Origin: Corallococcus sp.
Lineage (GTDB): Bacteria; Bacillota; Clostridia; Christensenellales; CAG-314
Direction: 5' to 3'
NCBI GenBank assembly: GCA_023667435.1
Contig: JAMPAB010000002.1
Coordinates: forward strand, 41,180 to 105,179
Length of the DNA stretch: 64,000 bases
This document shows, in pieces, positions 548-64,000 of this stretch (the first letter of the stretch is position 1; the number at the start of each line of letters is the position of its first letter). The notes under the pieces were generated by a model. That model ran no database searches and was not told the origin of the DNA. It worked only from the letters and a program-made list of their open reading frames with translations. The translations under genes and the position numbers were made by a program.

Positions 548-601
548 TAGAAAGATATAAAGTTTTATTTTATATTATTACACATTTTTGGAGAACGAAT
601 T

Positions 602-787: not shown

Positions 788-894
788 GCGACCGTTCCGT
801 TTCGGGAGAATATGAGGAGATTTCCAAAACGGAATACCGCTACAAAGACCTTGCAAACGGTTACAACGCGGCGATTGCAAAGGCTTTCGAACTG

Positions 895-27900: not shown

Positions 27901-27963
27901 ATCGAACCGTAACTCCTTTTTACAAGTATATCTCGGATTACCGCGTTTGTCAATATTTTTCGC

Positions 27964-27992
27964 TTGACAAAACGCGGTCGAAAAATTAGAAT
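27964..27992 (+). promoter_or_regulatory. glyQS promoter
   Basis: TTGACA (27964-27969), 17-nt spacer, TAGAAT (27987-27992). The leader is ~60 nt with AGGAG before ATG 28057. Confidence 0.6.
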
Positions 27993-28056
27993 AGAAACGC
28001 AGCGATAAATATAATCGCAATAAAATTTTATTGTAAAAATCAGGAGATTTAATACT

Positions 28057-37921: not shown

Positions 37922-37954
37922 GTGTCGTTCTCATTTAGGGGACGGCACTTTTTT
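37922..37954 (+). terminator. intrinsic terminator inside the leader, 8 nt upstream of the SD (attenuator candidate)
   Basis: GUGUCGUUC (37922-37930) pairs with GGACGGCAC (37940-37948), 9 bp including two G-U pairs, with a 9-nt loop. It is followed by T6 (37949-37954), then GGAGG (37962-37966) and ATG 37973. Confidence 0.6.
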
Positions 37955-37972
37955 AATACTCGGAGGCAAACT

Positions 37973-46145: not shown

Positions 46146-46652
46146 TCAATCTCTGTCCTGCATACGACGGTATTCCACGATAATTGCCTGGTCGTCGGTG
46201 GAATTTTTGACCATTTCACGCAGTTGCGGCAACGGGGTTGCAAGCACGTAAACGCCCAAATACCTGTACTCTTCCTGACTTGCCTGACCTTTGCCGCCTT
46301 TAATTTTGGCAAAGACAAAGCGCGGAGTATAATCTTTTTCGTATAGCGTAGCGATATCGATACGATTGAGTTTTGTCCAACACTCTTTGATGCTTTCAAA
46401 GTCTTCGGAAATTTCGTTAGTTATGTTGTTGTTGCCCTTTTGCAAACTGAGATTACTGTACGCCAAAAACCAAACGTTATATCCCTGCGGCGTAACTTTT
46501 TCCGGTTGGGCGTACATATCGCAATTCTGCTTTCCGAAATTTTTAGCGTAAGCTTTGTTCCAATTCATTTTTTCGCACAGATACTCGTAAATTATGCCGG
46601 AATTAGTTTTAGACGGACACTTTGACAATGCTCTTTCCATTTGTTTTTTCAT
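46146..46652 (-). CDS. hypothetical protein (168 aa)
   Basis: A clean ORF with GGAAGGAAAACATT upstream of the ATG. No motif recognised. AT-richer than its neighbours. Confidence 0.6.
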   Translation of the reverse strand: MKKQMERALSKCPSKTNSGIIYEYLCEKMNWNKAYAKNFGKQNCDMYAQPEKVTPQGYNVWFLAYSNLSLQKGNNNITNEISEDFESIKECWTKLNRIDIATLYEKDYTPRFVFAKIKGGKGQASQEEYRYLGVYVLATPLPQLREMVKNSTDDQAIIVEYRRMQDRD

Positions 46653-48005: not shown

Positions 48006-48692
48006 ATGGAAAGATGCGTTACCACGCTGTTTATGTTAACTTCGCTGGACGGTAAAATCAGTACGGGTTCTACAAACGAAACGGACTTCGACAAAGATTT
48101 TCCTGCGATCGACGGCGTCAAGCAGGGACTTCGACAATACTACGACATAGAACAAACAACCGATTTGTGGTCGCTTATTTCCGGCAAAACGCAAGCGAAG
48201 CTTGGCGTAAACGAAAAACCGCTGCCGAAAAGCAAAGGTCCCGTATCGTTTGTATTGATAGACAACAACAATCTTACGCAAAGAGGGGTAGAATATTTTT
48301 GCGCGCTGTCGCAAACGTTCGTACTCGTTACGGTAAACCCGAATCACCCTTCGTTCAACGTGAAAGAAACAAATTTACATATCGTTTTGCAAGAGCACTT
48401 AAATATGGCGGACGTTTTCCGCCGTTTAAAATGCGAATACGGCTGCGAAAGAATCACCGTACAAACGGGAGGAACGTTAAACGCATTGATGCTCCGCGAA
48501 AAGCTTATAGACTACGTCGATATAGTAGTCGCGCCCGTGCTGGTAGGAGGGAAAGACACGCCTTCTTTAATCGACGGAGAATCGTTTACGAACGTTTCGC
48601 AATTATGCGACGTTGCCCCGTTGGAGCTGCTGAAAGTCCGACAACTCCGAGATTCCTATTTGCGTCTTACGTACCGAACGCTAAAACGATAA
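48006..48692 (+). CDS. RibD C-terminal domain / dihydrofolate-reductase-like family protein
   Basis: MLTSLDGKISTG..., ITVQTGGTLNALMLREKLIDYVDIVVAPVLVGG. 228 aa. Confidence 0.75.
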   Translation: MERCVTTLFMLTSLDGKISTGSTNETDFDKDFPAIDGVKQGLRQYYDIEQTTDLWSLISGKTQAKLGVNEKPLPKSKGPVSFVLIDNNNLTQRGVEYFCALSQTFVLVTVNPNHPSFNVKETNLHIVLQEHLNMADVFRRLKCEYGCERITVQTGGTLNALMLREKLIDYVDIVVAPVLVGGKDTPSLIDGESFTNVSQLCDVAPLELLKVRQLRDSYLRLTYRTLKR

Positions 48693-48875: not shown

Positions 48876-51134
48876 TCAAATTCCCAAACACTTTACGTAT
48901 TTGTAAATAAACCTACGGATTTTGCTTCCGTTGGACGATATCGCTTCCGCAACGGATGAAATGTAATGTTCCACAAACTTCCTTTCGTTTACGCTCAAAT
49001 TTCTTCCGCCGTACACGCTGCGCTCTATCAACTCCACAAAACGGCGCGTATCTTCTGCCGCCACGCCGCATTTAGCGAGCGTATCTTCGCTAAAACCGCC
49101 TATCGCTTTGCAGTCGCGTTCCACAATGGAATATGCCGCGCGGCCGTACTGCTCTCCCTCGCTATTTAACAGCTGTCGCCGTTTTGCAAAGCAAATCCGC
49201 CGTATTACAACTATCACAAGGATAATTGCCGCAACAGCCAAAAGAGCGCCTGATACGGGCGTCAGGACTTTAAGAACTGCAAGCAGCTTCGCCTCCTCAG
49301 GAGTAAGCGGCTCTATCGGTTCTATTATCGGAGGCGGATTCGGATCGTCCGGTTTTATCGGTTCGGCGGGAGGGACGATAGGCTCGACGGGATCCTCTAT
49401 ATGATCGGGATCGGTCGGGTCTACGTCGGTATCTTTTTCCTCTTCGGAGTAATACGTAGGCGTAACCTCTATAGGCAGCCATCCCATACCCTCGAAATAC
49501 ACTTCCGTCCACGCGTGAGCGTTATTGCCCGTAATTTCCAAATCGGTAACATCGCCCGTACCCGTATAACGCACAAGATAACCTTCGACGTATCTTGCGG
49601 CGAAACCGTAACTTCGGAAAATGTACGTAGCTGCAGTAGCGAAATACGCGGAATTGGCTTTGCTTATACCGTTGCCGAAAAACTCGGCGATAAAATCGTC
49701 CTCTATTGCATCGGGCGTATCCGAATATTGAAAGAATTCCGAAAAATACGCTCGAATTTGCTGAGTTGCGGTACTTATGACGCTGCCTCTGAAATCGAAA
49801 GCGTTATCGATAGCCTGCAAAGTTTCGGGGGAAATTTCCGAATAGACCTTCGTCGCAAAGTTGCGGTACTCGTTTTCGAGAACGAGATATTCGCGCATCT
49901 GCTGCGTTCTGTCGGCGCCGCTTTCCAACCACTTCGCCTGCGTAACGCGTTCGCTGCTTCTGTCCCCCGTAAACACAGTGTATTCGTAAGTAGACGGCGT
50001 AAACAAATTACTGCGCAAATTCAAATCGTAAAACTGCGAACCGTTGGAATATTCTTTTACGGCGTACGGAGCGTACACGTATTTGCGGTTTGCCGAAACG
50101 TTTTTTACCGTTACGGAATAACTGTTGTCGTTTCCGCTTACACTGCCGTAATCGGCGAACTGAGTGGACGTCTCCATTCCGTTAGCCTTCAAAAATGACA
50201 GCAGCCCTTGATAATCGTCCTGAACGTAAGTATTCCTGTCCGTCACACGCCATTTGTTATCGGAAAAATCACTGCCTACAAAACCTTTCAAATACAATAT
50301 CGGCGTATCCGCGCTCAGACTTACCGTCAATTTAACGTCCTTAGAAGAACGCATCCCGTACGAATTTTTTATTTTACCTTCGGGCAGACTGTCCGAACCG
50401 TAAATAATGTTTTCTGCCTTATTTATAAAATCCGTTCTGAAACCCGCAACGACGCTGCTGCCTTTGTATAAATAGCAGGGAATAAGCCCCGTCAATAATA
50501 CGGCGGCGCAAACAAGATAGCAGATTCCCGCTTTTAAGTTAAATTCCCTATCCGACAACAGCAATCCGACAATCGAAAGTATCAACAAAGCGACTGCAAA
50601 CACCTGCGGAAACAATCCCAAACAAAGCCATACGATAACCGTAACCGCCGAAACGATAATATATGCCAAACTGTGCCTATCAAACAGCAAAGTCGCTCCA
50701 AATGCAAGCCAAACGGCCAAAACGGAAGCAAACGTGAAGTCGGATGCGTTCGAAACCGCAACGTTGAATGACCTGAAACCCCAGTGAAGATTTTGATTGG
50801 CAGCCGCAGATACGTAATTAAAAAAAGTCAACACGCCGTTTACGAAAGACTGTATATCCGCCAATACGCACACTGCCGTATACAGAATCGCCGCAGAAAG
50901 AGTAATTATACGTGCAACGATCCTTCTGCGTTTATTTTTGAAAAACAAGCATGCAACTACAACCGGAACGCCCATAATAAACGCGCTCATATACGCGGCG
51001 TTCAAACTCAACGCCGACATAAGCGTAAGATAAAGCGACGCAAAAGTCAAGACGCCGATAACAATCTTGAATATCGTCGTTTCTTTGCCGAGCGCGGCTT
51101 TCATTATTACGTTTTTTTTCGTTGCTTTTGCCAT
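48876..51134 (-). CDS. TgpA-like polytopic membrane protein with a transglutaminase-like core (non-canonical triad) and a DUF4129-like C-terminus
   Basis: About 6 N-terminal TM helices. The core reads NSAYFATAATYIFRSYGFAARYVEGY ... NNAHAWTEVYFEGMGWLPIEVTP. It is followed by a Pro-rich linker, a TM helix and a C-terminal helical domain. It is the last gene of the MoxR/DUF58 operon. Confidence 0.8.
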   Translation of the reverse strand: MAKATKKNVIMKAALGKETTIFKIVIGVLTFASLYLTLMSALSLNAAYMSAFIMGVPVVVACLFFKNKRRRIVARIITLSAAILYTAVCVLADIQSFVNGVLTFFNYVSAAANQNLHWGFRSFNVAVSNASDFTFASVLAVWLAFGATLLFDRHSLAYIIVSAVTVIVWLCLGLFPQVFAVALLILSIVGLLLSDREFNLKAGICYLVCAAVLLTGLIPCYLYKGSSVVAGFRTDFINKAENIIYGSDSLPEGKIKNSYGMRSSKDVKLTVSLSADTPILYLKGFVGSDFSDNKWRVTDRNTYVQDDYQGLLSFLKANGMETSTQFADYGSVSGNDNSYSVTVKNVSANRKYVYAPYAVKEYSNGSQFYDLNLRSNLFTPSTYEYTVFTGDRSSERVTQAKWLESGADRTQQMREYLVLENEYRNFATKVYSEISPETLQAIDNAFDFRGSVISTATQQIRAYFSEFFQYSDTPDAIEDDFIAEFFGNGISKANSAYFATAATYIFRSYGFAARYVEGYLVRYTGTGDVTDLEITGNNAHAWTEVYFEGMGWLPIEVTPTYYSEEEKDTDVDPTDPDHIEDPVEPIVPPAEPIKPDDPNPPPIIEPIEPLTPEEAKLLAVLKVLTPVSGALLAVAAIILVIVVIRRICFAKRRQLLNSEGEQYGRAAYSIVERDCKAIGGFSEDTLAKCGVAAEDTRRFVELIERSVYGGRNLSVNERKFVEHYISSVAEAISSNGSKIRRFIYKYVKCLGI

Positions 51135-51156
51135 TGTTTTTTTTATTCTGAAAAAA

Positions 51157-52311
51157 TTAAAGTTCCATTGTCGACAACGTCGCTTTGAGCTGCTGCGAGG
51201 AAACTTCTATAACTTTAATAGTTCCTTCGTCGTACTGCCCGACCATATCGTTTACCGCAAGAACGGTCATGTCCAATCCGCGATGTTCTTTCAGTTCGGC
51301 GCTGCTTACGGACGACGTTACGAATATTATTTTCGTAAACGACGCGCACGCTTCCTCTCGGGAAAAATAGAACAACGTTTCTGTGTTTCCTTCCTCCACC
51401 TTAATGCTCATAAGCGCGTACACCATAGAAACGAAAGAATCGCTGTCCGACACTTCGGATGAATAAAACGAACCGTCGTTAAACCAACCTACGCTGTGCG
51501 CGTACTTTTCCATCTTCAATGCGTCCGAAATAGACACGGCAATATCCAACACCGCATTAAGCTGTTCGTCGGAAGCAACGTTATTTTCTTTGTTGCGGCT
51601 CATATCCACCAATATCAGCGTATGATGATCGTCTGTGCTTCCGTATTCCTTCGACACAAGGCTGTCAAACTTACTCGATAATTTCCAGTGGACGGAATTC
51701 AAAGCGTCGCCCGGAACGTAATCGCGAATATCGAAAATTTCCGAATGATCGTTTCCTTTTTGAGGCAAAGAGTTTTCGCCCGAAAGAGACGCTCGCGTTT
51801 TAATGCCTATATGCGTTTGAATATCGTCGTACAGCACGGGCGACACTATAGATTCGGCAAAATCGGCGCGTTTAACGCTTAGAGAACAAATCCCCAGCAA
51901 ATCTATAAGCTGCAATTTTTTAAAACGAACGTTAATTCTGCCCGAATCGGCGCTTTTGAAATCATACGTGTGCGGAGCATACGACAAATCGTTAAACACG
52001 AAGCTTCTGCAAGTTGTTTTGTGAAATGTCGTATTTTCGATTTCCGCGATAACTTTTACGCAACCTGCCAACACGCGGGGTCTGAGTCCTACGCGCATAG
52101 TGATTTGAAGCGAACCGCCGCGTATGCAAGAATCGCGCGTTTCGTAATCGAAACGCACGCGGTTTCTTGCGAAAAGCAACGCGACGAAAGACGTCAGCGG
52201 AAAAAGTATTAAGCATATCAAAAAGAATAATGCTACGCCGCTGTCCGTCAAAATAAACGCCGCGATAGACGCAAGCAGAGTTATAGCGTAAAAAATTCGT
52301 CTGAAAAGCAT
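51157..52311 (-). CDS. DUF58 family protein
   Basis: Two N-terminal TM helices are present. DIRDYVPGDALNSVHWKLSSKFDSLVSKEY is the hallmark DUF58 motif. It lies 6 nt after moxR. Confidence 0.85.
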   Translation of the reverse strand: MLFRRIFYAITLLASIAAFILTDSGVALFFLICLILFPLTSFVALLFARNRVRFDYETRDSCIRGGSLQITMRVGLRPRVLAGCVKVIAEIENTTFHKTTCRSFVFNDLSYAPHTYDFKSADSGRINVRFKKLQLIDLLGICSLSVKRADFAESIVSPVLYDDIQTHIGIKTRASLSGENSLPQKGNDHSEIFDIRDYVPGDALNSVHWKLSSKFDSLVSKEYGSTDDHHTLILVDMSRNKENNVASDEQLNAVLDIAVSISDALKMEKYAHSVGWFNDGSFYSSEVSDSDSFVSMVYALMSIKVEEGNTETLFYFSREEACASFTKIIFVTSSVSSAELKEHRGLDMTVLAVNDMVGQYDEGTIKVIEVSSQQLKATLSTMEL

Positions 52312-52317
52312 AGTCTA

Positions 52318-53256
52318 TTACTTACCCATTGACGGTACGGGAGTATTTTTGAGAATATCTGCCAAAATCGCGCGAGAAGTCAGTCCTTCCAACTTTGCGC
52401 GCGGACGAAGTATAAGACGGTGCGCGCATACGTCGGCAAATACGTCGGCGACGTCGGAGGGGATAACGTAATCGCGTTCGGACAGAATCGCGCAGGCGCG
52501 TACCATACGCGACAAAGCGATAAGTCCGCGAGGACTTACTCCCAACTCGATAAGCGGATTGTTTCGCGTAGCTTCGCACAGCGCAACCATATATTTCAGT
52601 ATTTCCTCCGACACTTTTACCGAGCCGAGATAATTCTGAATTTCCACGATACTGTCGCGATCGGTAATGCACGTTAACGAATCGATAGGATCGCTTTCGT
52701 GATGGCGGCGCAGAATTTCTACTTGCTCGTCGGAATCGGGATAACCTATCGAAAGCTTAACCATAAATCTGTCTAACTGCGATTCGGGCAACGGTTGCGT
52801 TCCCAAAGAACCCGACGGGTTCTGAGTCGCGATACAGATAAACGGAGACGGCAGTCTGTGCGTTACGCCGTCTATCGTTACGCAGTTTTCCTCCATCGCT
52901 TCCAACAATGCGGACTGTGTTTTTGCGGACGTACGGTTGATTTCGTCGCCCATAAACAGATTGCAGAATATGGCGCCTTGCTTGTAATCGAATTCTCCCG
53001 TAGTCTTGTTGTATACCGTAAAACCGATTATATCCGACGGCATCGTATCGGGCGTAAACTGAACGCGTTTAAAGTCCAGACCCAACGTCTTGGCAAACGC
53101 CAGAGCTAGCGTAGTTTTACCTACGCCGGGATTATCCTCCAACAAGATGTTACCCTTAGCGTACACCGCCATCAGTACCTTGCGTACTACTTCTTCCTTA
53201 CCTACGATTACTTTACCGATATTTTTAATAATGGATTCGGATTTTTCAATAATCAT
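52318..53256 (-). CDS. MoxR-family AAA+ ATPase
   Basis: LLEDNPGVGKTTLA (Walker A) and LFMGDEINRTSAKTQSALLEAMEE (Walker B/sensor) are present. I trimmed the start to ATG 53256, which overlaps the upstream stop (ATGA). Confidence 0.9.
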   Translation of the reverse strand: MIIEKSESIIKNIGKVIVGKEEVVRKVLMAVYAKGNILLEDNPGVGKTTLALAFAKTLGLDFKRVQFTPDTMPSDIIGFTVYNKTTGEFDYKQGAIFCNLFMGDEINRTSAKTQSALLEAMEENCVTIDGVTHRLPSPFICIATQNPSGSLGTQPLPESQLDRFMVKLSIGYPDSDEQVEILRRHHESDPIDSLTCITDRDSIVEIQNYLGSVKVSEEILKYMVALCEATRNNPLIELGVSPRGLIALSRMVRACAILSERDYVIPSDVADVFADVCAHRLILRPRAKLEGLTSRAILADILKNTPVPSMGK

Positions 53257-56200
53257 TCTTCTTCCTCGCTTGTTATACTTTCCCAAGAAACGGGATTTCC
53301 GTCTTCGTCTATAAAGAACCACTTATATCCGTCGGGGGGCGGCAGTTCCGTTTCCTCCTCGCTATACAAATAGCGGTCGATACCTTCTTTGTCGTTATTG
53401 TAATATTTACCCGTAGTTCCGACGGGACAACCGTGCGTTAAATATTCGATATTTACGGAATGAGCTCCGCCCGCGAGCAGCGCGTTAAGTTCGTCCTCCG
53501 TCATCTTGAAGAACACGGATTCGATGCCGTATTGACCGTAGAAAGCGTAACTCTCGATCGTCGTCATTTTGTCGTACAGCAATACCGTTTTGAGGACGGC
53601 GCAGCAACGCGTTTCCTGAGAATCTGACGTATCTATGCTGTTTGCAAAGGAGAACGCTCTTTCGCCGATTTTTTCCAGACTTTCCGAACCGTAGAAAGTT
53701 TCCAGTTTTCGACATTCGTAAAACGCATATTTACCAATAGTTTTAACGTTTTCGGGAAGTCGGATATTTGTTAAAGTAGCGTGATAAGCAAACGCCCAGT
53801 CTCCTATTTCCGTCACATCTTCGAGAATATCCAAATCGACAAGTCCGTTCTTTGCCGCAGCCAAATACAGTTTTTTGCCGTCTTTGGAATACAGCACGTT
53901 GTTTACGACTTTAAAATACGGGTTATCTGCGCTTACCGAAATCGTTTCCAAAACCTTCAACGTAGAAAACGCCGTAGTGTCTATCGTTTTTACTCCTCTG
54001 CCGATAGAAATGCTTGCAAGCTTCGAGCAGGAATTGAACGCTTTTGCGCCTATGCTTTCGACGCTGTCGGGAATAACGACGCTTGTTATCACGTTGTTAT
54101 TCATAAACGACGCGCTGCCGATTTCCTTCGTTCCGTCGGGAATCGCAACCTCTTTTACAAGTCCCATAGACAGTACAAGCGATTCGCCTTGATAAACAAG
54201 GTCGCCCGAATATTCGTACGTTTCGTTTTCCGCGTCTATCGAAAACGTCTTTATACCCGTACAGCTAAGCAGTATATTGGAACCTATTTTCGTGACCGAT
54301 GCGGGTATGGTCATTGCCGTCAACTTTGTGGAATTGTAAAACGTTGCTTTACCCAGATTTTCGATACCGTCGTTTAGCGTAAACGACGTGACTTTCGTCA
54401 GATTATGCGCCGAATACGGCAAGGTGATGCGAGTTTCTTCGGGAAGAACTACCGACGTACTGTCGTATGCCGACGGAACGGCGTACAACACAGCGAAATC
54501 GTCGTATGTTTTATTGCCTGCTTTTTTTCCGAAAAGCATACCGTCGATAATCTTGAAATTGACGTTGTTCTCCGCAACGGTAATTGTCGTAAGTTTTCTC
54601 GTAGCATACAGGACGGGTTCGATTACTCCGAATTCTTCGGGATCGTCGTCGTCAAACGGATAATTACCGAAAGTAACAACGTTCGGACCCAAATGCAAAC
54701 TCGTAAGATTAGCGCAAGAAGCGAATGCATATCCGCCTACGTTAATTACGCTGTCCGGCAGAACGACGTTTTCCAACCCGTAATAAACCGTTTGATTATC
54801 GCTGTTTTTCGCGCTTGTTCCGCAGCTTCTGAACGCGCTGAAGCCTATATCGGTCAAAACCTCGCTCCACGTAACGTCGGCAAGATGCGTACATTGACCG
54901 AACGCGCGTTCGCCTATTTCCGTAACCTTGTTTAAATCGACGCTCGTAAGCGTTGTGATATAGTAGAAGCAATAATCGGGAATATCCGTTATATTATCGG
55001 GAATAGTCAGAGTTTCAAGAGACGTTTCTTGGAAACAGCGTGTGGACAGTTCCGAAAGATTGGGACATACGGATAAGTCTATCGACGTAATCTTACTTTT
55101 GAAAAACGCGTTGTTTCCCATCGTTACCAGACTCGACGGCAAAGTTATTTCGGTAAATCCGCAGCTTTTGAACGCGCTCGCGCTTATCGTTTCCACGCCG
55201 TCGGGTATAGAGAAGTTTGTAAGATTGATGCAACCGGAAAACGCGGAGGATCCTATATATGTGATACTGTCGGACAAAACGACGTTGTTGAGACTTTCGC
55301 AATTATAGAACAAATACGACGGAATAGCGTGTTCCAACGCAAGTCTGCGACCGCCGTCGCTGAACGTAATATCGCCCAAACCCTCAACGCTTTCGAGAGA
55401 CGTACATTCGTAGAATACGGACGAAGCCAGCTGTTTTAACGAAGCGGGAAGCGTTACGCTCTTTAACGACGAACAACCTGAAAACGCCGATTCGCCTATA
55501 CTTTCCAACTCGTCGCCCAAATCGACGGACACAAGCTTGTCGCAACCGTTAAACGCGTCGCCATCGATGCTTACCGTGCCTTCTTTTACGGTATAGGAAG
55601 TCATTTTTCTGTCTACTACGAGATTGAGATTGTATTTGTTGCTTCCGCCCGCATTAGGCATAGACACGTACAAGGCGTGACCGTCGCTGTCGCTTAGCGA
55701 CGTTCCGACAAATACGCCCGAATTGATAGAGACAATTCCTTTGCAGCCCGTAACGCTGCTTAACGTAGAATAGTAGAAACAGTAATTGTTAAGCGTAGTA
55801 ACGCTGTCGGGAATATCCAACGCAACTATGTTCCAATATGCGCACGAATAAGAGTCGATAACGTTAAGATCCTCGTGGAACGTTACTTGCAACGAACTTG
55901 CGGGCATCAGATACAGTCTGGAATAATCTTTGGAATACAGTCCCGAGTTAAACGACGAGTACCACTCGCTGCCCGAATCTACCGTTATTTCTTCCAAACC
56001 GTAAGTATTTAAGGCGTTGCTGGAAGACAACGCCATTCTGGCGGTAGAGGGAAGTCTCAACTTTTTGAATTTAACGGGATTTGCGTCGGATACGTTACTG
56101 AAAACCTTCGCCAAATCGACGTACGTTACCCCTTCGGGCACAACTACTTCGTCGGTAGCTTCGCCGGTATATCCTTCGAATACGCGTCTGTTGGCGTCGT

Positions 56201-56894
56201 AACGTATACTGAGCTTATTAAAATCGCTCACAGACAGGAAATCGGCGCTAAACTTCAATTTCTTTTCCAAGTTTCCCGAAACCTTAGCCATCGAAACTAT
56301 GCCCGTAGTAGGTTCGTTTTTGTTTGCCATATACCAACCGTTGAATCTCAACGCGCGTTCCGAATCGTTACGCATCGCCGTCTCGTCAACGGAATAGTTA
56401 TTTGCGGACATATCCACCCACACGGACAACGACAAATCGTCGGAAAAGCTTGCGGAGGCGCTGACCGTTTTCCAAAGAACGGTTTGCTCTTTATCCAAAT
56501 AAAATTCCGCCGTATAGTCGATTACGTCGTATATAATGTAGTTGTCGGTTTCTTTGTAAGCTATCTTTATCTGCTTGTTCAAACCGCTTGTAGACAAATC
56601 GAAGTTTTCGTACGTCACGGCGCCGTCGCGCAAGTGCTTTTCGGTTATCGCTACTTCGTTTCCCTCGTCGTCAGTAAGAGAGCATCCGCATTTTACGATG
56701 ATTTCGACGGGGTCAATCGTCATATTGCGCGCGAACACGAGATCGTCGTTGTGTTCGATGTGCAATACAGCGTTAGCATTGATACCGTCTATGGTATGCT
56801 TAGGGTCGTAAATCTCGCAAGCTGCAAGAGCCGCCGCGCTGACGGTAGCCAACGCGAACAAAACAAGCAGCAATATTATCCTTGATTTTTTCAT
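53253..56894 (-). CDS. 1,213-aa BspA-type leucine-rich-repeat lipoprotein
   Basis: MKKSRIILLLVLFALATVSAAALAAC has a lipobox. There are many LRR_5-like units (IPDSVTT.., AFSGCSSLKSVTLP, FYECTSLESV, AFSGCINLTNFSIP...). Its stop overlaps the moxR start. Confidence 0.88.
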   Translation of the reverse strand: MKKSRIILLLVLFALATVSAAALAACEIYDPKHTIDGINANAVLHIEHNDDLVFARNMTIDPVEIIVKCGCSLTDDEGNEVAITEKHLRDGAVTYENFDLSTSGLNKQIKIAYKETDNYIIYDVIDYTAEFYLDKEQTVLWKTVSASASFSDDLSLSVWVDMSANNYSVDETAMRNDSERALRFNGWYMANKNEPTTGIVSMAKVSGNLEKKLKFSADFLSVSDFNKLSIRYDANRRVFEGYTGEATDEVVVPEGVTYVDLAKVFSNVSDANPVKFKKLRLPSTARMALSSSNALNTYGLEEITVDSGSEWYSSFNSGLYSKDYSRLYLMPASSLQVTFHEDLNVIDSYSCAYWNIVALDIPDSVTTLNNYCFYYSTLSSVTGCKGIVSINSGVFVGTSLSDSDGHALYVSMPNAGGSNKYNLNLVVDRKMTSYTVKEGTVSIDGDAFNGCDKLVSVDLGDELESIGESAFSGCSSLKSVTLPASLKQLASSVFYECTSLESVEGLGDITFSDGGRRLALEHAIPSYLFYNCESLNNVVLSDSITYIGSSAFSGCINLTNFSIPDGVETISASAFKSCGFTEITLPSSLVTMGNNAFFKSKITSIDLSVCPNLSELSTRCFQETSLETLTIPDNITDIPDYCFYYITTLTSVDLNKVTEIGERAFGQCTHLADVTWSEVLTDIGFSAFRSCGTSAKNSDNQTVYYGLENVVLPDSVINVGGYAFASCANLTSLHLGPNVVTFGNYPFDDDDPEEFGVIEPVLYATRKLTTITVAENNVNFKIIDGMLFGKKAGNKTYDDFAVLYAVPSAYDSTSVVLPEETRITLPYSAHNLTKVTSFTLNDGIENLGKATFYNSTKLTAMTIPASVTKIGSNILLSCTGIKTFSIDAENETYEYSGDLVYQGESLVLSMGLVKEVAIPDGTKEIGSASFMNNNVITSVVIPDSVESIGAKAFNSCSKLASISIGRGVKTIDTTAFSTLKVLETISVSADNPYFKVVNNVLYSKDGKKLYLAAAKNGLVDLDILEDVTEIGDWAFAYHATLTNIRLPENVKTIGKYAFYECRKLETFYGSESLEKIGERAFSFANSIDTSDSQETRCCAVLKTVLLYDKMTTIESYAFYGQYGIESVFFKMTEDELNALLAGGAHSVNIEYLTHGCPVGTTGKYYNNDKEGIDRYLYSEEETELPPPDGYKWFFIDEDGNPVSWESITSEEEE

Positions 56895-56926
56895 AGTTAT
56901 GCCCTCTCTCCTATCGTTATTAAAAG

Positions 56927-58642
56927 TTACTTTCTTACTTTCTTACTCTTCTTCGCTGCAATAATTTCCCCAGAACGTTTCCTCAGTTCGTTAAAGTCGA
57001 TGGGTTTGGACACGTGACCGTCCATACCGGCGGCTTCGGATAATTTTATATCTTCCACAAACGCGTCTGCGGACAATGCGATAATAGGCGCGCTTTCCGC
57101 GTCCGCCTTGCCGCTGTTTCTTATGGCGCGCGCGGCATCGCGTCCGTTTAAACGCGGCATCTGAATATCCAATAATACCAAGTCGAACGAATATTCCTTC
57201 GACTCCGTAAAGGTATCGACCGCCTCCTGTCCGTCGTGCGCCCACGTTACCACCGCGCCTTCGCTTTCGAGAATTTCTATGGCGATTTCGGCGTTAACCT
57301 CGTTATCTTCGGCAAGAAGAATACGACAATCTTTGAAAGTAAAGTCCGACGCTTCTGCGTATACTTCTTCCGCCACAACGGCAGCCGTTTCTGCATCCTG
57401 CTCCACTTCGGCGACGGGCAACGACAGAAAAACGGAGAAATCCGTTCCTTTCCCGAGCTCGCTGTCAACAACTATGTTGCCGCCCATCAAACGCACGATA
57501 TTGTCGCAGATTGCAAGACCCAAACCCGTTCCGCCGTAATGATGCGACGTAGAAGCTTCTTCCTGCTCGAACGGACGCATAATCTTATGGATATTTTCGG
57601 GAGCTATACCTTTACCGGTATCGCGAACGCGTATCATCAACTGAATGTTACCGCCGATATTATCCAACTGCTTAAACGTAACTTCGATTTTGCCGCCGGC
57701 AGGCGTAAACTTATTTGCATTGGAAACAAGGTTCGTGACGACTTGCGTAAGACGCATTTCATCGGCGACAAGATAACGCGCGCTTATATCCACCGTTTCT
57801 ACGAGGAAGTTTATACCCTTGCTCGTGACGGTCGTATTGAACATATTGCGGATTTTTTCCGCAAATCCCATAATATCCATCTGCGCGTTAAACAGCTGCA
57901 TTTTGCCGCTTTCGATTTTCGAAATATCCAGTATGTCGTTAATCATACTAAGCAAGAATACGGATAAATCGCCCGCGCGTTCCAGATAGTTGGATACCTT
58001 TTCGGGATCGGACACATTCATGCGCGCAAGAGATATCATACCCATAACGCCGTTCATCGGGGTACGTATCTCGTGACTCATATTAGACAAAAACGAAGAT
58101 TTCGCAGCCGCTTGTTCCAACGCAAAATCCAACTGTTTTTTCATTTCGTCGCGGCTGTTCTTTTGTTCGGTTATATCGAGGATGGTAAACGCAATGTAGT
58201 CTTTTCCGTCGCTCTCGGCGCAAAACGCTTCTATTTTGCCGAATTTTCCGTCTCCGTAACCGAATTCCTGCTCGAACGAATCAGTTTTATCCCACTGCTT
58301 AAAGTTGTTTTCGAACGCGCGAGTGTACTCTCTGTCAATATGTTTCTTGACGGCTTCGGTATCTAAAAACAACTCTTCTTTAGTTACGCCGAAAAACTCG
58401 TAAACGCCCGAGCTGATGTACACCGGTTGATATGTTTGCGCGTCCACGACCAAAAAGGCGGACGATTTTCCCTTGCCGTAAATATCCGCAAAAGCTTTTT
58501 CGCCGTCGCCGAGTTCTTTGACGCGAACGAGATCTTTGCGCGCTTTGCTTTTGTTTGCCGAAAAGCAAATAACGCATAGCGCTACGCAAACGCCCGCTAA
58601 AAGAGCCATTATTATGCTGTATACTACAATATAAGTAGTCAT
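56927..58642 (-). CDS. hybrid sensor histidine kinase (TM - PAS-like - HisKA - HATPase - REC)
   Basis: I trimmed the start to ATG 58642, which follows GGAGAAAAG. FLSNMSHEIRTPMNG is the H-box. G-boxes GTGLGL are present. The C-terminal receiver includes ILLAEDNEVN...DLVLLDIQMP. It ends 32 nt upstream of the LRR gene. Confidence 0.88.
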   Translation of the reverse strand: MTTYIVVYSIIMALLAGVCVALCVICFSANKSKARKDLVRVKELGDGEKAFADIYGKGKSSAFLVVDAQTYQPVYISSGVYEFFGVTKEELFLDTEAVKKHIDREYTRAFENNFKQWDKTDSFEQEFGYGDGKFGKIEAFCAESDGKDYIAFTILDITEQKNSRDEMKKQLDFALEQAAAKSSFLSNMSHEIRTPMNGVMGMISLARMNVSDPEKVSNYLERAGDLSVFLLSMINDILDISKIESGKMQLFNAQMDIMGFAEKIRNMFNTTVTSKGINFLVETVDISARYLVADEMRLTQVVTNLVSNANKFTPAGGKIEVTFKQLDNIGGNIQLMIRVRDTGKGIAPENIHKIMRPFEQEEASTSHHYGGTGLGLAICDNIVRLMGGNIVVDSELGKGTDFSVFLSLPVAEVEQDAETAAVVAEEVYAEASDFTFKDCRILLAEDNEVNAEIAIEILESEGAVVTWAHDGQEAVDTFTESKEYSFDLVLLDIQMPRLNGRDAARAIRNSGKADAESAPIIALSADAFVEDIKLSEAAGMDGHVSKPIDFNELRKRSGEIIAAKKSKKVRK

Positions 58643-58903
58643 CTTTTCTCCGAAATCCGATGTTCGAACGCAACGGTCTGCCGATACGCTGCGTATAATT
58701 ATACAGATATAGTATATCACAAGAAGCGACAGTTTTCAACACATTTACATAAAAAACCGATATTTGAGACAATCGGCGGCTGCTCTTAAACAAAATACTC
58801 AAATAGCAAGCAGCGACTGCTTGGATATAGCAGTCGCTCCGTTTAATATCCTCCTCAGACGTACGTATTCGAACCCGTAAGTTTTGGCGGCTATATGCAA
58901 AAA

Positions 58904-59039
58904 GGGGCTGTCGCATTAAGCGCATAATATACGCTTTTGTGAATGATTGCAAAAAGACGCTGAAAAATATATATTTTCAACGTCTTTTTCGTATGGTTTA
59001 TGAGATGTTTTGAATAAATAATGTTTAATGCGACAGCTC
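58904..59039. repeat. third copy of the GGGGCTGTCGCA hairpin family, arms separated by 105 nt
   Basis: GGGGCTGTCGCATTAA (58904-58919) and TTAATGCGACAGCTC (59025-59039) are complementary at 14 of 15 positions. The intervening sequence contains the terminator at 58951-58989. Confidence 0.55.
58951..58989. terminator. bidirectional terminator downstream of the giant gene
   Basis: AAAAAGACGCTGAAAA pairs with TTTTCAACGTCTTTTT with one mismatch, and A/T runs lie on both sides. Confidence 0.75.
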
Positions 59040-59078: not shown

Positions 59079-62000
59079 TTAGTAGGCGCGCCAGTAATCT
59101 CTGTTTGCAACGTATTGCGTGGCAACGCCGTAGACGGGCGCGTTCAACTCGAGATTCAACTGCGCAGTGCATATGGAAATCAAGTTGATACTGCCGTTTA
59201 AGTTTGTCAACGTAAAGTCGTTTTCGTTGTACAGCACGTCGATATTCAACGTTCCCAAACTGCTGTCGATGGGGGAAAGGTCCGCCGAAATATTGAAGTC
59301 GCCCGTAGTATATTTGTAGTCCTTCAATACGTCTTCTATGCCGTAATCGTTCGTATTCTCTTTGGTGATAGCTTTCTTGATTTCGTCTTCGATAGCGCTT
59401 CCGAAATTCACCAATTGCAAAATATAATCTATTGCGTTTGCCGAGAACGTCGCCGAATCTATACCCGACTCGATATAGTTTTCGTTTTCCAAATGTACCG
59501 TATTGCCGGACGACGCTGCTTTGTGATAGCCGACGGCAAGATATTTACTGCCGTGTCTTTCCCAATTCGCAACCGTATTGCAATCGCCGAATAAGCCGAT
59601 TTCCTTCCCGCACTTAGCACAGTATTTCGACACTATATAATCGCCCTTATTTACTTTGGTGTTGACGTAGGAGTTGCGAACTATATCGAACTTATCCGTA
59701 ACGCCGTTGTAGAATATGTAACCGTCTCCGCCGTAATCGTTGAATACCAGATTTTCGATTTGAAGTTTGCTCGCTATCGGACGGGACAGTCTGACGGCTA
59801 TCTGCACCTTATTGTTCTCGTCGATATCGACAAATAACTCGACTTCCAACGTAATATCGCGAGTGAGAATATTAACAGGTATTTCGCCCGAGATATAGAA
59901 CGCGCGGGTATTCTCGCCTTCTTTCGGCGTAGCGGTTTTGATAAACGCCGAAAGCAACTCGTACATACTGTTGAAATCGATATGATACTCGGAGTAGTTA
60001 TACGCCAAAATATCCTGAACCGCAGTATATTGCAATCCGCTTATCCACTTGCTTTCGTCAAACGTTCCGTCGTTCTTCGAATCGGCGTATTCCTTTACGA
60101 GATCCGATGCGGTGACGACTATATTTTCCAAATTCAACGACATATTGTCGTACGCTAATTGCAGGCAGTTAAGCACCAAACCGTTTCGGCTCTCCGTCTG
60201 AGAAGCGGAAACTACTACGTCGCCGAGCTTACTCAAAAATACCTGACCGTTGATAATCAAATTGAAAATACCGTTTTCGTAAGACAGCTTGCGCAGCAGC
60301 GTAGAGTAATCCACCAACGCCGCGTTGCCTTCGGCTTCCGCCATTGCGGCAAATACTTGATCCACAATCTGCTGAATCTGCGGAATAACGGCTACCAACG
60401 GACCGTACAGGCTTGCGCACTTTTCTATTGTCGCAACGTCTATCGTCAATCTCAATGTGTTTCTGGCTTGATCTGACTTTATCTGTCTTCCCGTATCGGT
60501 CACGTATACGCTGCCGTCCTTGTAGACTATATCCAACGACATAAAGTCCTGCCACTCGTTTGCGGAACGCTGTTTGAGAACGTTCAAGACTGCGCGCAGC
60601 TTAAATGTATTCATACCTTCCGACAGAGCGTTGCTGTAATAAAACTCGAAGTAGGAGCCCTTTGCAATACGGTAAGTCTGACCGCTGATCGTCATTTCCG
60701 AATCGGCGGCGAAATCGAACTTCCAGCTGTTGGTGTGAACCAGCGCTTCTATGGAAGGCAGGAATTCTTCCAGTACCTCGTCTATTGCAACGTAAGCGAC
60801 GTCGTCCGTAAATTCGCGGTATTCCGTTTTCTTCGCGGGATAAATTTCCAACGTTTTGGACATAACGGGCGCAACGACTTTTATAAGCGTTCCGTTAGCA
60901 AAGCTTGCCGTCATATTTATGCCTGCAAAACTCAATCCCATACGCACGAATCCGTTATCCGACGAAATACTTAACGACGATATTATCGAAGGTACGTCGA
61001 TATCAGTAAATGCGTTCATATCCAAATCGCCGAACATCGACTCTTCCCTGCCGCTGAATTCGTTTACAAGCGCGTCTATACGTTGACATATTTCGATAAT
61101 TTTCGAAATATCGCCCGTTGCGAAAATCTTATCGCCGGCGGCGATTTTGACAACGCCGTTACTGTACCAAACGTTAAGATTATCTACGCGCAATTTATAT
61201 ACGCCGTTAATCAAGTCGAGATTTGCGTAGACGGTATTCTGTTCGTCCACTTTTATCGCAAGGTTGGTAGTAAAGTCGCCGTCGGGTGCGGTAACGACCG
61301 CGTCCGCAGGACTTACGGTCGCTTGCAAACTTAACGCCGCGCCCGCGTGTTCGAAGTCCGTAAAGCTTACGCAAAGTCCGTTGTTATTTGTCAACGCAAC
61401 CGTAAACGGCGAAGACGTTCCGAATTGACCGCCGTCAACGCTCAACGTCAAAGTTTTGCCGTCGAACGAAAACGCGTTGATTAACTTACCGTAAAGGATG
61501 CTTTGCGCGTTAAACTTAGCTATAACGTTTTTAACAAGAGCAAGCAATGCGTCAACGTGAGCGTTATAACCCATGCACGCGTCCAAAGTTTCTTCAATCG
61601 ACGACGCGCCGCTCGCGCCGCCGTCAATGCGTACGGCGAGTTTGAAATCGTCAACCGACATATACAGATAGTTGTCTACAAACCATACCTGCGCGTTTAT
61701 CGCATTGATATTGTCGTAGAATAATTTCGCCGTTATCCGTATTCCCTTGTTGTAAGCTATATTACTCTCAACAAAGTATTCTTTGCCGCTTACTACTACG
61801 CTTCCTTCTATCTTTATTCCGTATCCCTCAGCCGTTAGCAACTCCGCTATGGCGTCGCAATATCTCTCCGCTATCTCTATTACGTCCGCGCAGCCTCTGT
61901 CTATGCTCGGCTCAACGTAGCTGTTTGTTAGTCCGCAGACTATCTTCATTCCCTCTGCGTCTACTTCTATTCCCCCTATCTTTCCGTCGCTGCCTATCGC

Positions 62001-64000
62001 TATCTCTAACGCTATTCCGTTGTAACTTGCTTTGATCGTAGTCCCGTTCTCTCCGAACTCGACCGCTATTCCTTTTATTATCTCGGGAATGGGTATCTCG
62101 CTATCGATCTCAGGCAGACTTATCTCCGTGAATTTATTTATTACTTCTAACAGCCGCTCTATCTCGTTTACGGCAAGTTTTACTTTTACCGCTCCGTAGT
62201 TTACGTATACCACACCGTTATCGTAAAGCAACGCTATCGTCTCTCCGTACATCTCCGTGTACGCAGTTATCTTCTTGTTGTATACGTCGATTCGCGCTAC
62301 TATCTCGTATCCGAATATCTCCGCCGTTACGTCCGTTACGTATAGCTCCGCCGAAGGCGCTTCTACCGCTTCGTCTCTTCCGACAACGCTTACGCTAAGT
62401 TCGCTTAACGCTACTTCGCCTATGCTCAGTCCCTTTACGCTTAACGTCAGTTCATCCGTTCCGCTTAACGTTACTTCTACGTCGTCTATTCCGAATTGCT
62501 CGCCGTTAAACGTTAACGCAAGCTCGCTTCCGTTGTATTCGAATTCCTTTATTACCTTGCCTATCTCTACGTCGGCAAGTTTTCCGCTTATCTCTTCTAT
62601 TCCGTTAAGTATTCCGTCTAATACGTCGCTGTATCCGTACAAGCTCTTAAGTACGCTCGCCGCGTCTATGCTTCCATTGTCGCTTACGCTTGTCTCGCTC
62701 GCTATCTTTATTCCGTTTACGCTCGCGTATACGACGCCGTTTACATAATATACCTCTCCGTCTATTATGTAATTCTTTCCTTCTCTTACCTTTATATCTG
62801 CGCGTATTCCCTTGTTGTAGGCTATATTACTCTCAACAAAGTAAACAGAATCTTTTATTTCGATTTCCGCAGCAAGAGTAATGCGAGCTCCGTTATTCAT
62901 CAAATCTACGAACGACTTATATGCGTCCGCGACGTATCCCGTCAGCAAGCTTACGGGAATGAAACCGCTTCCGTCGCCGACGTCGAGTTTCACGGTATCG
63001 TTCGATTGACGTATTTCAAGCTCGCGACCGAATACTACGCCCGTTACGCTTACGAAACCGAAATCGGATTGCGCCAAATTGACGGACAGAATATTGCCGT
63101 CAAACTCCGCGTAGATACGGGGCGAATTGCCGTTCAAATCTACCGTTATGCAGCTAAGAATTTTTTCTATATTCAAACCGCTCAAATCGACGTCCGCTTC
63201 GGGAAGTTCGATACCGAACGTTTCGGTAATTAACGCTATAATATCTCCCAGTTCGTCAATTCTTCCGCGCACAGCGATACTGCCGAATTTAACAAACAAC
63301 TCGTCGTTTACGAATCTGACGTAAGCGGTCTCGCCGAACAGCTCTGCCGATGCGTTTATATCCATAGCAAGCAAATCCGCCGAAACAAAGAACTTAACGC
63401 CGTCTAAAGTACCTTCCAGATTAAGTACGTAGTCTTGCGCGTTCGGAGCCTTGATTTCTCTTACGTTACGCTTGACGGTAGCTGTAATATCGGCAGATAT
63501 TCCGTTTGCTATACGTACGTCGCTAAGCGCGGCGGCAAGATACGTATTGTTTACAACGTACAGTTCCAAACCGAATTCGCCTAACGACAATGCGTCCGCA
63601 TTTATAAGCATTGTAGCTTTGCCGTTGTTAAACGCAAATTTTTTGATGATGCTTGCAAAATCGATACTTGCCAAATCTATATTTTGCGTCGTATCGACTA
63701 CCGTTTCGACAGCGTTTACGACAGACCTTACAAGCTCGTTATCTATGCCGTTAAGTAATGCCGCAATCTTGTCTGCGTCGATATCCAAACCGTCTCCGTC
63801 AACCTCGAAGGCGACTTTTACGCCGTTGACCGTAAGATATACTTTGCCGTCAAAGTAGACTGCGTCGGCATTTATTACGTCGCCGCTTTCGCAATAAACT
63901 ACGGCGGAAACGCTTATATTGCCGTTTATATCGCGGCCGAAGTTACCGCGTATGCCGTAAGATTCGCCGTTGACGTCCAAAGTCAAATCGAAATCCGCTC
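59079..64000 (-). CDS. giant modular protein (>1,635 aa), N-terminus outside the window, function unknown
   Basis: The frame is open to the window edge, because the tracked TTG at 63986 has in-frame codons upstream. At least three ~355-aa super-modules are marked by Y.V.G..Y..VNG.K.A and YFVESNIAYNKGIR. The distinct C-terminal ~450 aa contains KYCAKCGKEIGLFGDC. Confidence 0.85.
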   Translation of the reverse strand, partial: ADFDLTLDVNGESYGIRGNFGRDINGNISVSAVVYCESGDVINADAVYFDGKVYLTVNGVKVAFEVDGDGLDIDADKIAALLNGIDNELVRSVVNAVETVVDTTQNIDLASIDFASIIKKFAFNNGKATMLINADALSLGEFGLELYVVNNTYLAAALSDVRIANGISADITATVKRNVREIKAPNAQDYVLNLEGTLDGVKFFVSADLLAMDINASAELFGETAYVRFVNDELFVKFGSIAVRGRIDELGDIIALITETFGIELPEADVDLSGLNIEKILSCITVDLNGNSPRIYAEFDGNILSVNLAQSDFGFVSVTGVVFGRELEIRQSNDTVKLDVGDGSGFIPVSLLTGYVADAYKSFVDLMNNGARITLAAEIEIKDSVYFVESNIAYNKGIRADIKVREGKNYIIDGEVYYVNGVVYASVNGIKIASETSVSDNGSIDAASVLKSLYGYSDVLDGILNGIEEISGKLADVEIGKVIKEFEYNGSELALTFNGEQFGIDDVEVTLSGTDELTLSVKGLSIGEVALSELSVSVVGRDEAVEAPSAELYVTDVTAEIFGYEIVARIDVYNKKITAYTEMYGETIALLYDNGVVYVNYGAVKVKLAVNEIERLLEVINKFTEISLPEIDSEIPIPEIIKGIAVEFGENGTTIKASYNGIALEIAIGSDGKIGGIEVDAEGMKIVCGLTNSYVEPSIDRGCADVIEIAERYCDAIAELLTAEGYGIKIEGSVVVSGKEYFVESNIAYNKGIRITAKLFYDNINAINAQVWFVDNYLYMSVDDFKLAVRIDGGASGASSIEETLDACMGYNAHVDALLALVKNVIAKFNAQSILYGKLINAFSFDGKTLTLSVDGGQFGTSSPFTVALTNNNGLCVSFTDFEHAGAALSLQATVSPADAVVTAPDGDFTTNLAIKVDEQNTVYANLDLINGVYKLRVDNLNVWYSNGVVKIAAGDKIFATGDISKIIEICQRIDALVNEFSGREESMFGDLDMNAFTDIDVPSIISSLSISSDNGFVRMGLSFAGINMTASFANGTLIKVVAPVMSKTLEIYPAKKTEYREFTDDVAYVAIDEVLEEFLPSIEALVHTNSWKFDFAADSEMTISGQTYRIAKGSYFEFYYSNALSEGMNTFKLRAVLNVLKQRSANEWQDFMSLDIVYKDGSVYVTDTGRQIKSDQARNTLRLTIDVATIEKCASLYGPLVAVIPQIQQIVDQVFAAMAEAEGNAALVDYSTLLRKLSYENGIFNLIINGQVFLSKLGDVVVSASQTESRNGLVLNCLQLAYDNMSLNLENIVVTASDLVKEYADSKNDGTFDESKWISGLQYTAVQDILAYNYSEYHIDFNSMYELLSAFIKTATPKEGENTRAFYISGEIPVNILTRDITLEVELFVDIDENNKVQIAVRLSRPIASKLQIENLVFNDYGGDGYIFYNGVTDKFDIVRNSYVNTKVNKGDYIVSKYCAKCGKEIGLFGDCNTVANWERHGSKYLAVGYHKAASSGNTVHLENENYIESGIDSATFSANAIDYILQLVNFGSAIEDEIKKAITKENTNDYGIEDVLKDYKYTTGDFNISADLSPIDSSLGTLNIDVLYNENDFTLTNLNGSINLISICTAQLNLELNAPVYGVATQYVANRDYWRAY
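61738..62843 (-). repeat. pair of 41-nt direct repeats exactly 1,065 nt (355 codons) apart inside the giant gene
   Basis: CGTATTCCCTTGTTGTA(A/G)GCTATATTACTCTCAACAAAGTA occurs at 61738-61778 and 62803-62843 with 40/41 identity. Both copies encode YFVESNIAYNKGIR. Confidence 0.9.

Follow-up and report, generated by a model that had tools for sequence, protein, structure and literature searches.

A hybrid histidine kinase and an LRR_5 surface protein accompany a MoxR-DUF58-TgpA gene trio whose transglutaminase-like protein has lost its nucleophilic cysteine

Introduction

The 64,000-nt stretch of DNA analyzed here (the window; positions 41,180 to 105,179 of contig JAMPAB010000002.1, assembly GCA_023667435.1) contains a block of five minus-strand genes that encode, in the direction of reading, a hybrid histidine kinase (HK), a giant lipoprotein with leucine-rich repeats (LRRs) of the LRR_5 type, a MoxR-type AAA+ ATPase, a DUF58 protein and a membrane protein with the fold of the transglutaminase-like protein TgpA. 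We found that the association of the HK and the LRR_5 protein with the MoxR-DUF58-TgpA trio is real, a conclusion that we hold with high confidence: the gene set is conserved as a unit in Christensenellales, Lachnospiraceae, Oscillospirales, Erysipelotrichales and Coriobacteriia. Judged by gene order and sequence comparison, the window cluster is a previously undescribed cousin of the PFNA cluster of Bifidobacterium, with the same architecture, another class of kinase and another ectoprotein.

The MoxR-DUF58-transglutaminase trio is among the commonest gene contexts of MoxR and is without an explained function. The generic trio, with a MoxR of the MRP subfamily (Snider and Houry 2006; Wong and Houry 2012, as cited in PMC6803598), has the same three genes in the same order as the window, whereas the subfamily described here has two extra fixed partners, the HK and the LRR_5 protein. 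In the PFNA cluster, pkb2 encodes a Ser/Thr kinase, fn3 a surface protein of about 2,000 aa and aaa-atp a MoxR protein, and duf58 and tgm complete the set; these genes are reported to be transcribed as an operon in B. longum GT15, and Pkb2 is reported to phosphorylate the MoxR ATPase in Bifidobacterium (PMC8430577, PMC6803598). PFNA has been proposed to mediate host sensing and was reported as restricted to bifidobacteria by the Nezametdinova/Danilenko group (PMC8430577, PMC6803598, PMC10688814).

Results

The HK and LRR_5 genes are conserved partners of the trio

The block is composed of the following genes:
56927-58642, minus strand: hybrid HK, 571 aa
53253-56894, minus strand: LRR_5 lipoprotein (BspA-type), 1,213 aa
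52318-53256, minus strand: MoxR-type AAA+ ATPase, 312 aa, soluble
51157-52311, minus strand: DUF58 protein, 384 aa
48876-51134, minus strand: TgpA-fold membrane protein, 752 aa

The gaps from HK to TgpA, read from the sequence, are 32 nt, -4 nt, 6 nt and 22 nt, and the coordinates, strand and gaps given by a first-pass annotation of the window were all borne out. The -4-nt junction is an ATGA in which the ATG of moxR overlaps the stop codon of the LRR gene by 4 nt. The stretch GAGGAAGAAGA, which codes for the LRR protein's acidic C-terminus (…SEEEE), is also Shine-Dalgarno-like for moxR. The DUF58 gene lies directly 3' of moxR, at the 6-nt gap, in the order of the trio.

To compare gene neighborhoods, one genome per GTDB species was scanned with a TgpA alignment, yielding 80 loci with 10-kb flanks, which are the best-scoring relatives of the window TgpA-like protein (at least 568 confirmed relatives) and not a random sample. 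The loci were reduced to 75 non-redundant MoxR-DUF58-TgpA trios for counting, and their six-frame open reading frames (ORFs) were searched with the five window proteins and with an LRR_5 hidden Markov model built iteratively from the loci. The first start codon was taken as the ORF start, and some negative gaps in the loci are therefore over-extensions. Full-length HK orthologs scored 364-849 bits and other HKs in the loci below 280 bits; the HK genes of L028, L045 and L061, which are cut by contig ends (88-250 bits), were also scored as orthologs.

An HK ortholog and an adjacent same-strand LRR_5 ORF were found together in 36/75 loci; the HK without such an ORF in 4/75, the ORF without the HK in 4/75, and neither in 31/75 (Fisher p = 1.7e-12). 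In three of the four HK-only loci the contig ends at most 369 nt past TgpA and the neighbor is invisible, leaving L057 as the sole clear exception. Elsewhere in the flanks there are just 11 more LRR_5 ORFs. The LRR_5 assignment did not hinge on similarity to the window protein, since Pfam LRR_5 was above its cut-off (78-136 bits) in 14/14 partners that phmmer matched weakly or not at all to the window LRR protein; in the 845-aa partner of L006, LRR_5 stayed below the cut-off (22.7 bits). Chance adjacency of an LRR_5 gene, a candidate explanation given that such genes are common in the genome, was ruled out by the conservation across loci. The first-pass annotation had suggested that the LRR protein is a client or partner of the trio and had proposed mining trio neighborhoods for LRR_5 proteins and hybrid HKs; the partnership was upheld by the 36/40 HK-carrying loci in which LRR_5 adjoins the trio, and the association recurs in many other genomes. 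Beyond what that annotation had claimed, the HK is as conserved a partner of the trio as the LRR protein, and the LRR gene may also follow TgpA.

Two gene orders were observed. The order HK-LRR-MoxR-DUF58-TgpA is found in Christensenellales, Lachnospiraceae, Lawsonibacter, Evtepia, Bulleidia and Holdemania (Erysipelotrichales), and the order HK-MoxR-DUF58-TgpA-LRR in Coriobacteriia (Collinsella, Slackia and Eggerthella). Cultured strains among the carriers are Coprococcus comes MSK.16.63 (L030), Blautia sp. MSJ-19 (L052), Holdemania filiformis DSM 12042 (L072), Slackia isoflavoniconvertens DSM 22006 (L066) and Collinsella sp. AF20-14LB (L041). Neighboring genes are closely spaced in either order, with an HK-moxR gap of -4 to +2 nt where the LRR gene follows TgpA. 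The ATGA overlap between the LRR gene and moxR, noted in the first pass and read directly here, is present as the exact 4-nt overlap in 11/21 loci of the LRR-before-MoxR order. Relatives from metagenomes with 35-48% identity in the TgpA-like protein keep LRR-MoxR-DUF58-TgpA in varied flanking contexts, and 4/5 of them have the HK. For example, P0004 (TgpA 47% identity) carries HK, LRR_5 (1,188 aa), MoxR, DUF58 and TgpA genes flanked by Y-family polymerase and GH2 genes, and P0014 (38% identity) carries the same cluster without the HK. Around remoter TgpA relatives (24-30% identity), the HK directly adjoins MoxR-DUF58-TgpA, or other large surface proteins lie upstream. Position 494 of TgpA is Asn in 40/40 proteins from HK loci, and without the HK it is Tyr in 23, Asn in 14 and another residue in 7; by this residue, the TgpA proteins of HK-containing loci appear recognizable as a distinct subfamily.

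These counts bear on the possibility that the block comprises two co-regulated but separate units that share just a promoter, namely, an HK and LRR pair for sensing or adhesion and a trio with its own job. The trio stands without HK or LRR gene in the 31 loci mentioned above, including those of Bacillaceae, and the close relative L004 lost the HK and kept the LRR gene and the trio, as two units would allow. However, the HK directly abuts moxR when the LRR gene follows TgpA, it lacks an ectodomain that could touch the LRR protein, the TgpA proteins of HK loci form their own subfamily, and HK and LRR_5 co-occur with the trio at the above p-value. We consider two separate units unlikely.

Five of the loci (L020, L028, L035, L064 and L085) are typical Clostridia- or Coriobacteriia-type clusters under bin labels such as Bifidobacterium catenulatum, Succinivibrio, Bacteroidaceae, Pseudomonadota and Streptococcus pasteurianus, and these contigs are probably mis-binned. 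Likewise, the label of the window itself, 'Corallococcus sp.' (a myxobacterium), looks like a taxonomic error in view of its 46% GC and its Christensenellales-like relatives, the proteins being also filed under 'Bacillota bacterium'.

The TgpA-like protein keeps the fold and has lost the cysteine

The TgpA-like protein matched Transglut_core in Pfam (51.2 bits). Its predicted layout, which like that of all other proteins was derived from hydropathy and inspection, runs from 6-7 transmembrane (TM) helices through an ectodomain of about 390 aa, which holds the transglutaminase-like core, and a Pro-rich linker to one further TM helix; the cytoplasmic tail, about 100 aa long, is helical. The best Foldseek match of an AlphaFold2 model (pLDDT 77) was P. 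aeruginosa TgpA (6G49; E = 3e-7, probability 1.00, target-normalised TM-score 0.59), and the ectodomain as modeled has the fold of the TgpA periplasmic domain. The two proteins are also alike in their N-terminal TM bundle followed by an ectodomain and one TM helix.

In the alignment to 6G49, the nucleophile Cys is replaced by Ser495, the His is kept as His540 and the Asp is replaced by Glu556. Canonical TgpA proteins (Pseudomonas, Actinoplanes and P0024), including the actinobacterial ones from the same search, keep Cys-His-Asp, whereas the nucleophile position of 88 related proteins is occupied by Ser, Ala or Asp in 85 and by Cys, Gln or Thr in one protein each. Four close relatives that share the LRR-MoxR-DUF58-TgpA core (L004, L011, L013 and L015), three of them with the HK, have Ala there. 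The fold is kept, but the loss of the Cys nucleophile makes cysteine chemistry impossible, and this counts against the cross-linking by the transglutaminase domain that the first-pass annotation had suggested; the replacement by Ser495, together with Ser, Ala or Asp in 85/88 relatives, speaks against that part of the claim. The transglutaminase-like domain of this family is probably a non-catalytic scaffold, as far as residue conservation can tell.

If the domain were still an enzyme, its action on the LRR protein or the cell wall, whether processing or cross-linking, would have to rely on a Ser-His-Glu triad. Ser495, His540 and Glu556 are indeed at the catalytic positions, and the family is invariant in its His and acidic residue. 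Nevertheless, the nucleophile is Ala in the four close relatives named above and Ala or Asp in many others, and the Tgm proteins of Bifidobacterium have lost the His and Asp as well, which makes this reading very unlikely.

Another transglutaminase-like protein is encoded in the window at 23378-26419 (plus strand; 1,013 aa), with a signal peptide and a C-terminal TM helix. It retains the Cys-His-Asp motifs (GKCVCSGYSFA … EAHSW … YDVTW), unlike the TgpA-like protein of the operon. Tail-to-tail with it, at 26635-28230 (minus strand), is the gene for a 531-aa LRR_5 protein (72 bits), so that the two are a second transglutaminase-like/LRR_5 pair in the window.

The LRR_5 partner is an N-terminally anchored surface protein

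The window LRR protein consists of a signal peptide, a non-LRR region (about residues 27-230), LRR_5 repeats (about 235-1130) and an acidic tail. LRR_5 matched in 9 stretches with 439 bits, and LRR_5 and LRR_8 were the only families found by Pfam. A lipobox, LAAC, is at residues 23-26 (Cys26), and by inspection the lipobox Cys is present in 7/7 Christensenellales orthologs; the signal is of the Sec lipoprotein type, without a twin-arginine motif. All LRR partners are anchored by a hydrophobic N-terminal segment and none at the C-terminus; outside Christensenellales, the segment is a signal-anchor helix with an F-x-P motif after it. The Christensenellales orthologs are collinear, evenly conserved at 43-49% identity and diverge about as fast as TgpA. 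The partners of Lachnospiraceae and Coriobacteriia are likewise collinear with each other (793 columns, E = 2e-139).

A non-LRR docking domain shared by the window LRR protein and the Lachnospiraceae and Coriobacteriia partners was sought and rejected: hhalign gave repeat-level similarity that did not exceed the control, and residues 27-230 matched weakly (51% probability). A homologue search with residues 27-335 returned no match, not even the parent protein in the same collection, and is uninformative. The protein shares the LRR_5 repeat type and the cell-surface location with BspA-type LRR_5 surface proteins such as HupY/LrrG; it differs from that family in scoring far under its cut-off (NF047961, 169 bits vs 1250). 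BspA-type proteins are not known to be linked to MoxR systems, and in the full-text literature searched no paper connected BspA or LRR_5 with MoxR or DUF58. The window also encodes, at 37922-42949 (plus strand), a giant LRR_5 protein of 1,675 aa (LRR_5 521 bits and a Flg_new repeat), which served as the negative control for LRR orthology.

The LRR protein may alternatively be a client of the trio. MoxR and DUF58 would then be a dedicated chaperone that readies the LRR pre-protein for export, lipidation or folding, with TgpA as the membrane receptor or insertion site, and the LRR protein would leave as an ordinary adhesin. The translational coupling of the LRR and moxR genes and the chaperone-like character of MoxR proteins would suit such a role, and in M. 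tuberculosis, RipA reportedly requires MoxR1 for its Tat export (PMC12067865, which cites Bhuwan 2016 for it). In addition, HK-less trios of other Clostridia adjoin other giant surface proteins (Big_2 and choline-binding; cadherin-like, fn3 and PQQ_2; Flg_new and LRR_5). The client reading is at odds with the Sec-type lipoprotein signal that lacks a twin-arginine motif, leaves the dedicated kinase and the large conserved TgpA ectodomain unexplained, and does not suit Coriobacteriia, in which the LRR gene is last in the cluster and uncoupled from moxR. We regard it as doubtful, though worth keeping in mind.

At positions 341-7918 of the Oscillospiraceae loci L009 and L010, a Big_2 protein of about 1,590 aa, a 590-aa DUF4430 protein and a prenyltransferase-like protein precede the trio and replace the HK and LRR genes, which by gene content appears to be another ectoprotein cassette on the same trio. 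These neighborhoods would fit a general linkage of the Cys-less trio to large ectoproteins.

The HK is a cytoplasmic hybrid kinase

The HK matched HisKA (58.9 bits), HATPase_c (103.8 bits) and Response_reg (77.9 bits) in Pfam, and comprises an N-terminal TM helix, a PAS-like stretch in the cytoplasm (about residues 32-182), the HisKA and HATPase_c domains, and a receiver. The residues H190, N308, D341xG343 (G1), G370-G375 (G2), D446, D492 and K546 are invariant in 38 orthologs, in agreement with the fused receiver of the first-pass annotation. That annotation had also described almost no extracellular loop; there is actually no loop at all, as the single TM helix begins after about 8 residues. 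Coriobacteriia orthologs have no TM helix, and an ectodomain is absent throughout. The PAS-like domain that it had named is weak in the window HK (PAS_3, 17.8 bits, E = 0.004) and was supported across orthologs, with PAS_3 in 22/38 (best E = 4.6e-7) and PAS_4 in 15/38. A profile search with this region had the LOV/PAS domain of YtvA as its best PDB match, and a single-sequence PDB search gave no meaningful match.

As for the claimed absence of a response regulator and of an HPt protein from the window, no further receiver or HK domain was found among its ORFs of at least 70 aa; the search did not extend to HPt domains. Downstream of several related clusters lie extra PAS hybrid HKs and cyclic di-GMP genes (L006 15041-22469, L015 12294-14501, L014 14486-16666, L013 15180-17930, and L052 12039-14231 and 17586-19616). 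The cyclic di-GMP genes encode GGDEF, receiver-GGDEF-EAL and SBP_bac_3-GGDEF proteins, and nothing similar is present in the window. Their position hints that the cyclic di-GMP and HK genes might be a downstream signaling output.

The MoxR and DUF58 proteins

The MoxR protein matched AAA_3 (184.9 bits) and AAA_lid_2 (81.8 bits), and its Walker A (GxGKT), Walker B (DE), N146 and R243 are invariant in 75 homologs. The DUF58 protein has one or two N-terminal TM helices and a cytoplasmic vWA-like body. Its PF01882 score (21.9 bits) is just under the cut-off of 23.4 bits; phmmer shows homology (64-478 bits) between the protein and its DUF58 counterparts in related loci, including that of L008, which has a PF01882 match. 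The R-x-Y-x-x-G-D signature is conserved, whereas D236 and S238 are not. A MIDAS motif was considered and is not conserved, so metal-dependent vWA binding is not assumed.

The block could in principle be a MoxR-vWA conflict or anti-phage system of the kind of Kaur et al. 2020, as the PF20030 (bpMoxR) match on MoxR (34.8 bits) would suggest. However, this match overlaps the far stronger AAA_3 match, Pfam found no beta-propeller or effector domain, and the PADLOC search gave no system, just trivial AAA and receiver similarities of 18-28 bits. Such a role is barely credible.

Boundaries of the probable transcription unit

The five genes look like one operon from their arrangement, as the first-pass annotation had proposed: the gaps are short, one promoter-like site precedes the block and hairpins flank it. 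The flanking elements are as follows:
58951-58989, minus strand: upstream hairpin, 16-bp stem then UUUUUG; -18.9 kcal/mol, z = -6.5, with 0/200 shuffles as stable
58812-58838, minus strand: second hairpin, between the upstream terminator and the promoter-like site of the HK; -19.5 kcal/mol, z = -5.0
58711-58739, minus strand: sigma-70-like promoter, TTGAAA-17 nt-TATACT with extended -10 TG, 69 nt 5' of the HK start codon
48788-48826, minus strand: downstream hairpin, 18-bp stem then UUUGU; -29.6 kcal/mol, z = -7.6

The upstream hairpin probably terminates transcription of the gene before it (59079-63986) and bounds the unit on its upstream side. The hairpin at 58812-58838 matched no Rfam family. 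The promoter-like site, with 10/12 consensus matches in the scan, is a pattern match only. The downstream hairpin is likely the operon terminator and is possibly bidirectional, serving also the convergent RibD_C gene (48006-48692). The placement of terminators solely outside the block, also proposed in the first pass, held up: the flanking hairpins are strong, and the terminator-like matches within the block are 5-bp stems near the shuffled rate (26 vs 20 +/- 4.7 expected).

The mechanical ORFs of the HK and MoxR reach further 5', to GTG codons at 58720 and 53322, respectively. For the HK, the ATG start at 58642 is preferred because the N-termini of orthologs (MTAYI...) match MTTYI and because the promoter-like site (58739-58711) would fall within the extended ORF. 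For MoxR, the ATG start is preferred because the orthologs are 310-318 aa long.

Among the other genes of the window, the ORF directly upstream of the operon (59079-63986, minus strand; at least 1,635 aa) is not conserved beside the operon in related loci, and neither it nor the ORF at 895-7092 (plus strand; 2,065 aa) had a Pfam match. A 168-aa protein encoded at 46146-46652 (minus strand) matches SRA (SET and RING associated; 33.3 bits), a domain seldom seen in bacteria.

Discussion

The closest known counterpart of the window cluster is PFNA. The two clusters have the same five-part order in one direction: a kinase, a giant N-terminally anchored repeat ectoprotein, a MoxR of the MRP subfamily, a DUF58 protein and a polytopic transglutaminase-like protein. 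The tgm and fn3 genes of B. adolescentis were translated from the supplementary alignments of PMC6803598; Tgm is homologous to the window TgpA-like protein over the core, linker, TM helix and tail (BLASTP E = 3e-10, 24% over 247 aa) and has Ser at the nucleophile position (GDSEQYAS). The clusters differ in that bifidobacterial Tgm has also lost the His and Asp, whereas the window family keeps the His and an acidic residue. They also differ in the kinase, which is the Hanks-type Ser/Thr kinase Pkb2 in PFNA and a PAS hybrid HK in the window, and in the ectoprotein, which is cadherin-like/FN3 in PFNA and an LRR_5 lipoprotein in the window. The FN3 protein of B. adolescentis contains no LRR_5 and showed no similarity to any ORF in the loci, and the window cluster is without PrpC or FHA genes. 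A more distant parallel is the mycobacterial ripAB/moxR1-DUF58-vWA neighborhood (PMC12067865), in which a MoxR-DUF58 pair lies beside a secreted envelope protein reported to interact with MoxR1; there, the partner is a Tat-exported NlpC/P60 hydrolase, the third gene encodes a vWA membrane protein and no kinase is present. For yeaC/yeaD/yebA of B. subtilis, a literature search found nothing useful.

The predicted topology divides the five proteins between the two sides of the membrane. The LRR_5 protein, tethered by its N-terminal lipid or TM helix, and the TgpA-fold ectodomain are predicted to be outside, and MoxR, the DUF58 body, the C-terminal tail of TgpA and all sensory and catalytic parts of the HK are predicted to be inside. 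We give roughly even chances to the reading that the five genes are one operon for a trans-membrane surface module of the PFNA type, made up of a scaffold, a motor, a kinase and an ectoprotein. In such a module, the TgpA-like protein would be a non-catalytic scaffold whose ectodomain holds the LRR protein, and the latter would bind a ligand or mediate adhesion. Recruitment of a MoxR hexamer would fall to the vWA-like DUF58 protein, which is anchored in the membrane, and from the cytoplasm the hexamer may spend ATP to assemble, remodel or reset the complex. The HK, which has no extracellular sensor, would either read the state of the complex or control the ATPase via its receiver domain. It would thereby be the two-component counterpart of Pkb2, and the output past the receiver domain may be encoded elsewhere in the genome.

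Several points weigh against this reading of a surface module. Gene linkage alone gives neither the direction of signaling nor a stable partnership of the LRR protein. A histidine kinase cannot phosphorylate MoxR as a Ser/Thr kinase does, and the analogy with Pkb2 is therefore architectural only. The terminal response regulator is unlinked in the window, to the extent of the ORF search described above. The invariance of His540 and of the acidic residue (Glu/Asp556) across the family means that some residual chemistry, or metal or ligand binding, could persist at this site. By hhalign, the window LRR protein resembles its Lachnospiraceae and Coriobacteriia counterparts at the level of the repeats, no better than the unrelated window LRR_5 protein does; the LRR_5 content thus appears constant across groups, while the LRR component is not proven to be orthologous in all of them. 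Finally, the loci were sampled by their score as TgpA relatives rather than at random, and the taxon labels of several of them stem from metagenome bins and may be wrong.

More tentatively, these clusters may represent a widespread, unrecognized class of split receptors of gut Gram-positives, in which an LRR receptor would sit on a dead transglutaminase scaffold and be mechanically coupled, by way of a MoxR AAA+/vWA motor, to a cytoplasmic hybrid HK. If this possibility is true, ligand binding outside would lead to phosphorylation inside, or ATP hydrolysis inside would lead to adhesin switching outside. The kinase and the ectoprotein would then be exchangeable cassettes, with an HK and LRR_5 here and a Ser/Thr kinase and FN3 in bifidobacteria.

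An extracellular LRR protein and a kinase without an external sensor are thus two fixed partners of one large subfamily of the trio, and the subfamily's 'transglutaminase' cannot act via cysteine. PFNA, thought to be unique to bifidobacteria, would be one version of a broader modular design present in Clostridia and Coriobacteriia, and an operon type believed to be confined to one genus now extends to two phyla. The unexplained trio may thereby be turned into a testable model, for which cultured carriers including Coprococcus comes, Blautia, Holdemania, Slackia and Collinsella are available.

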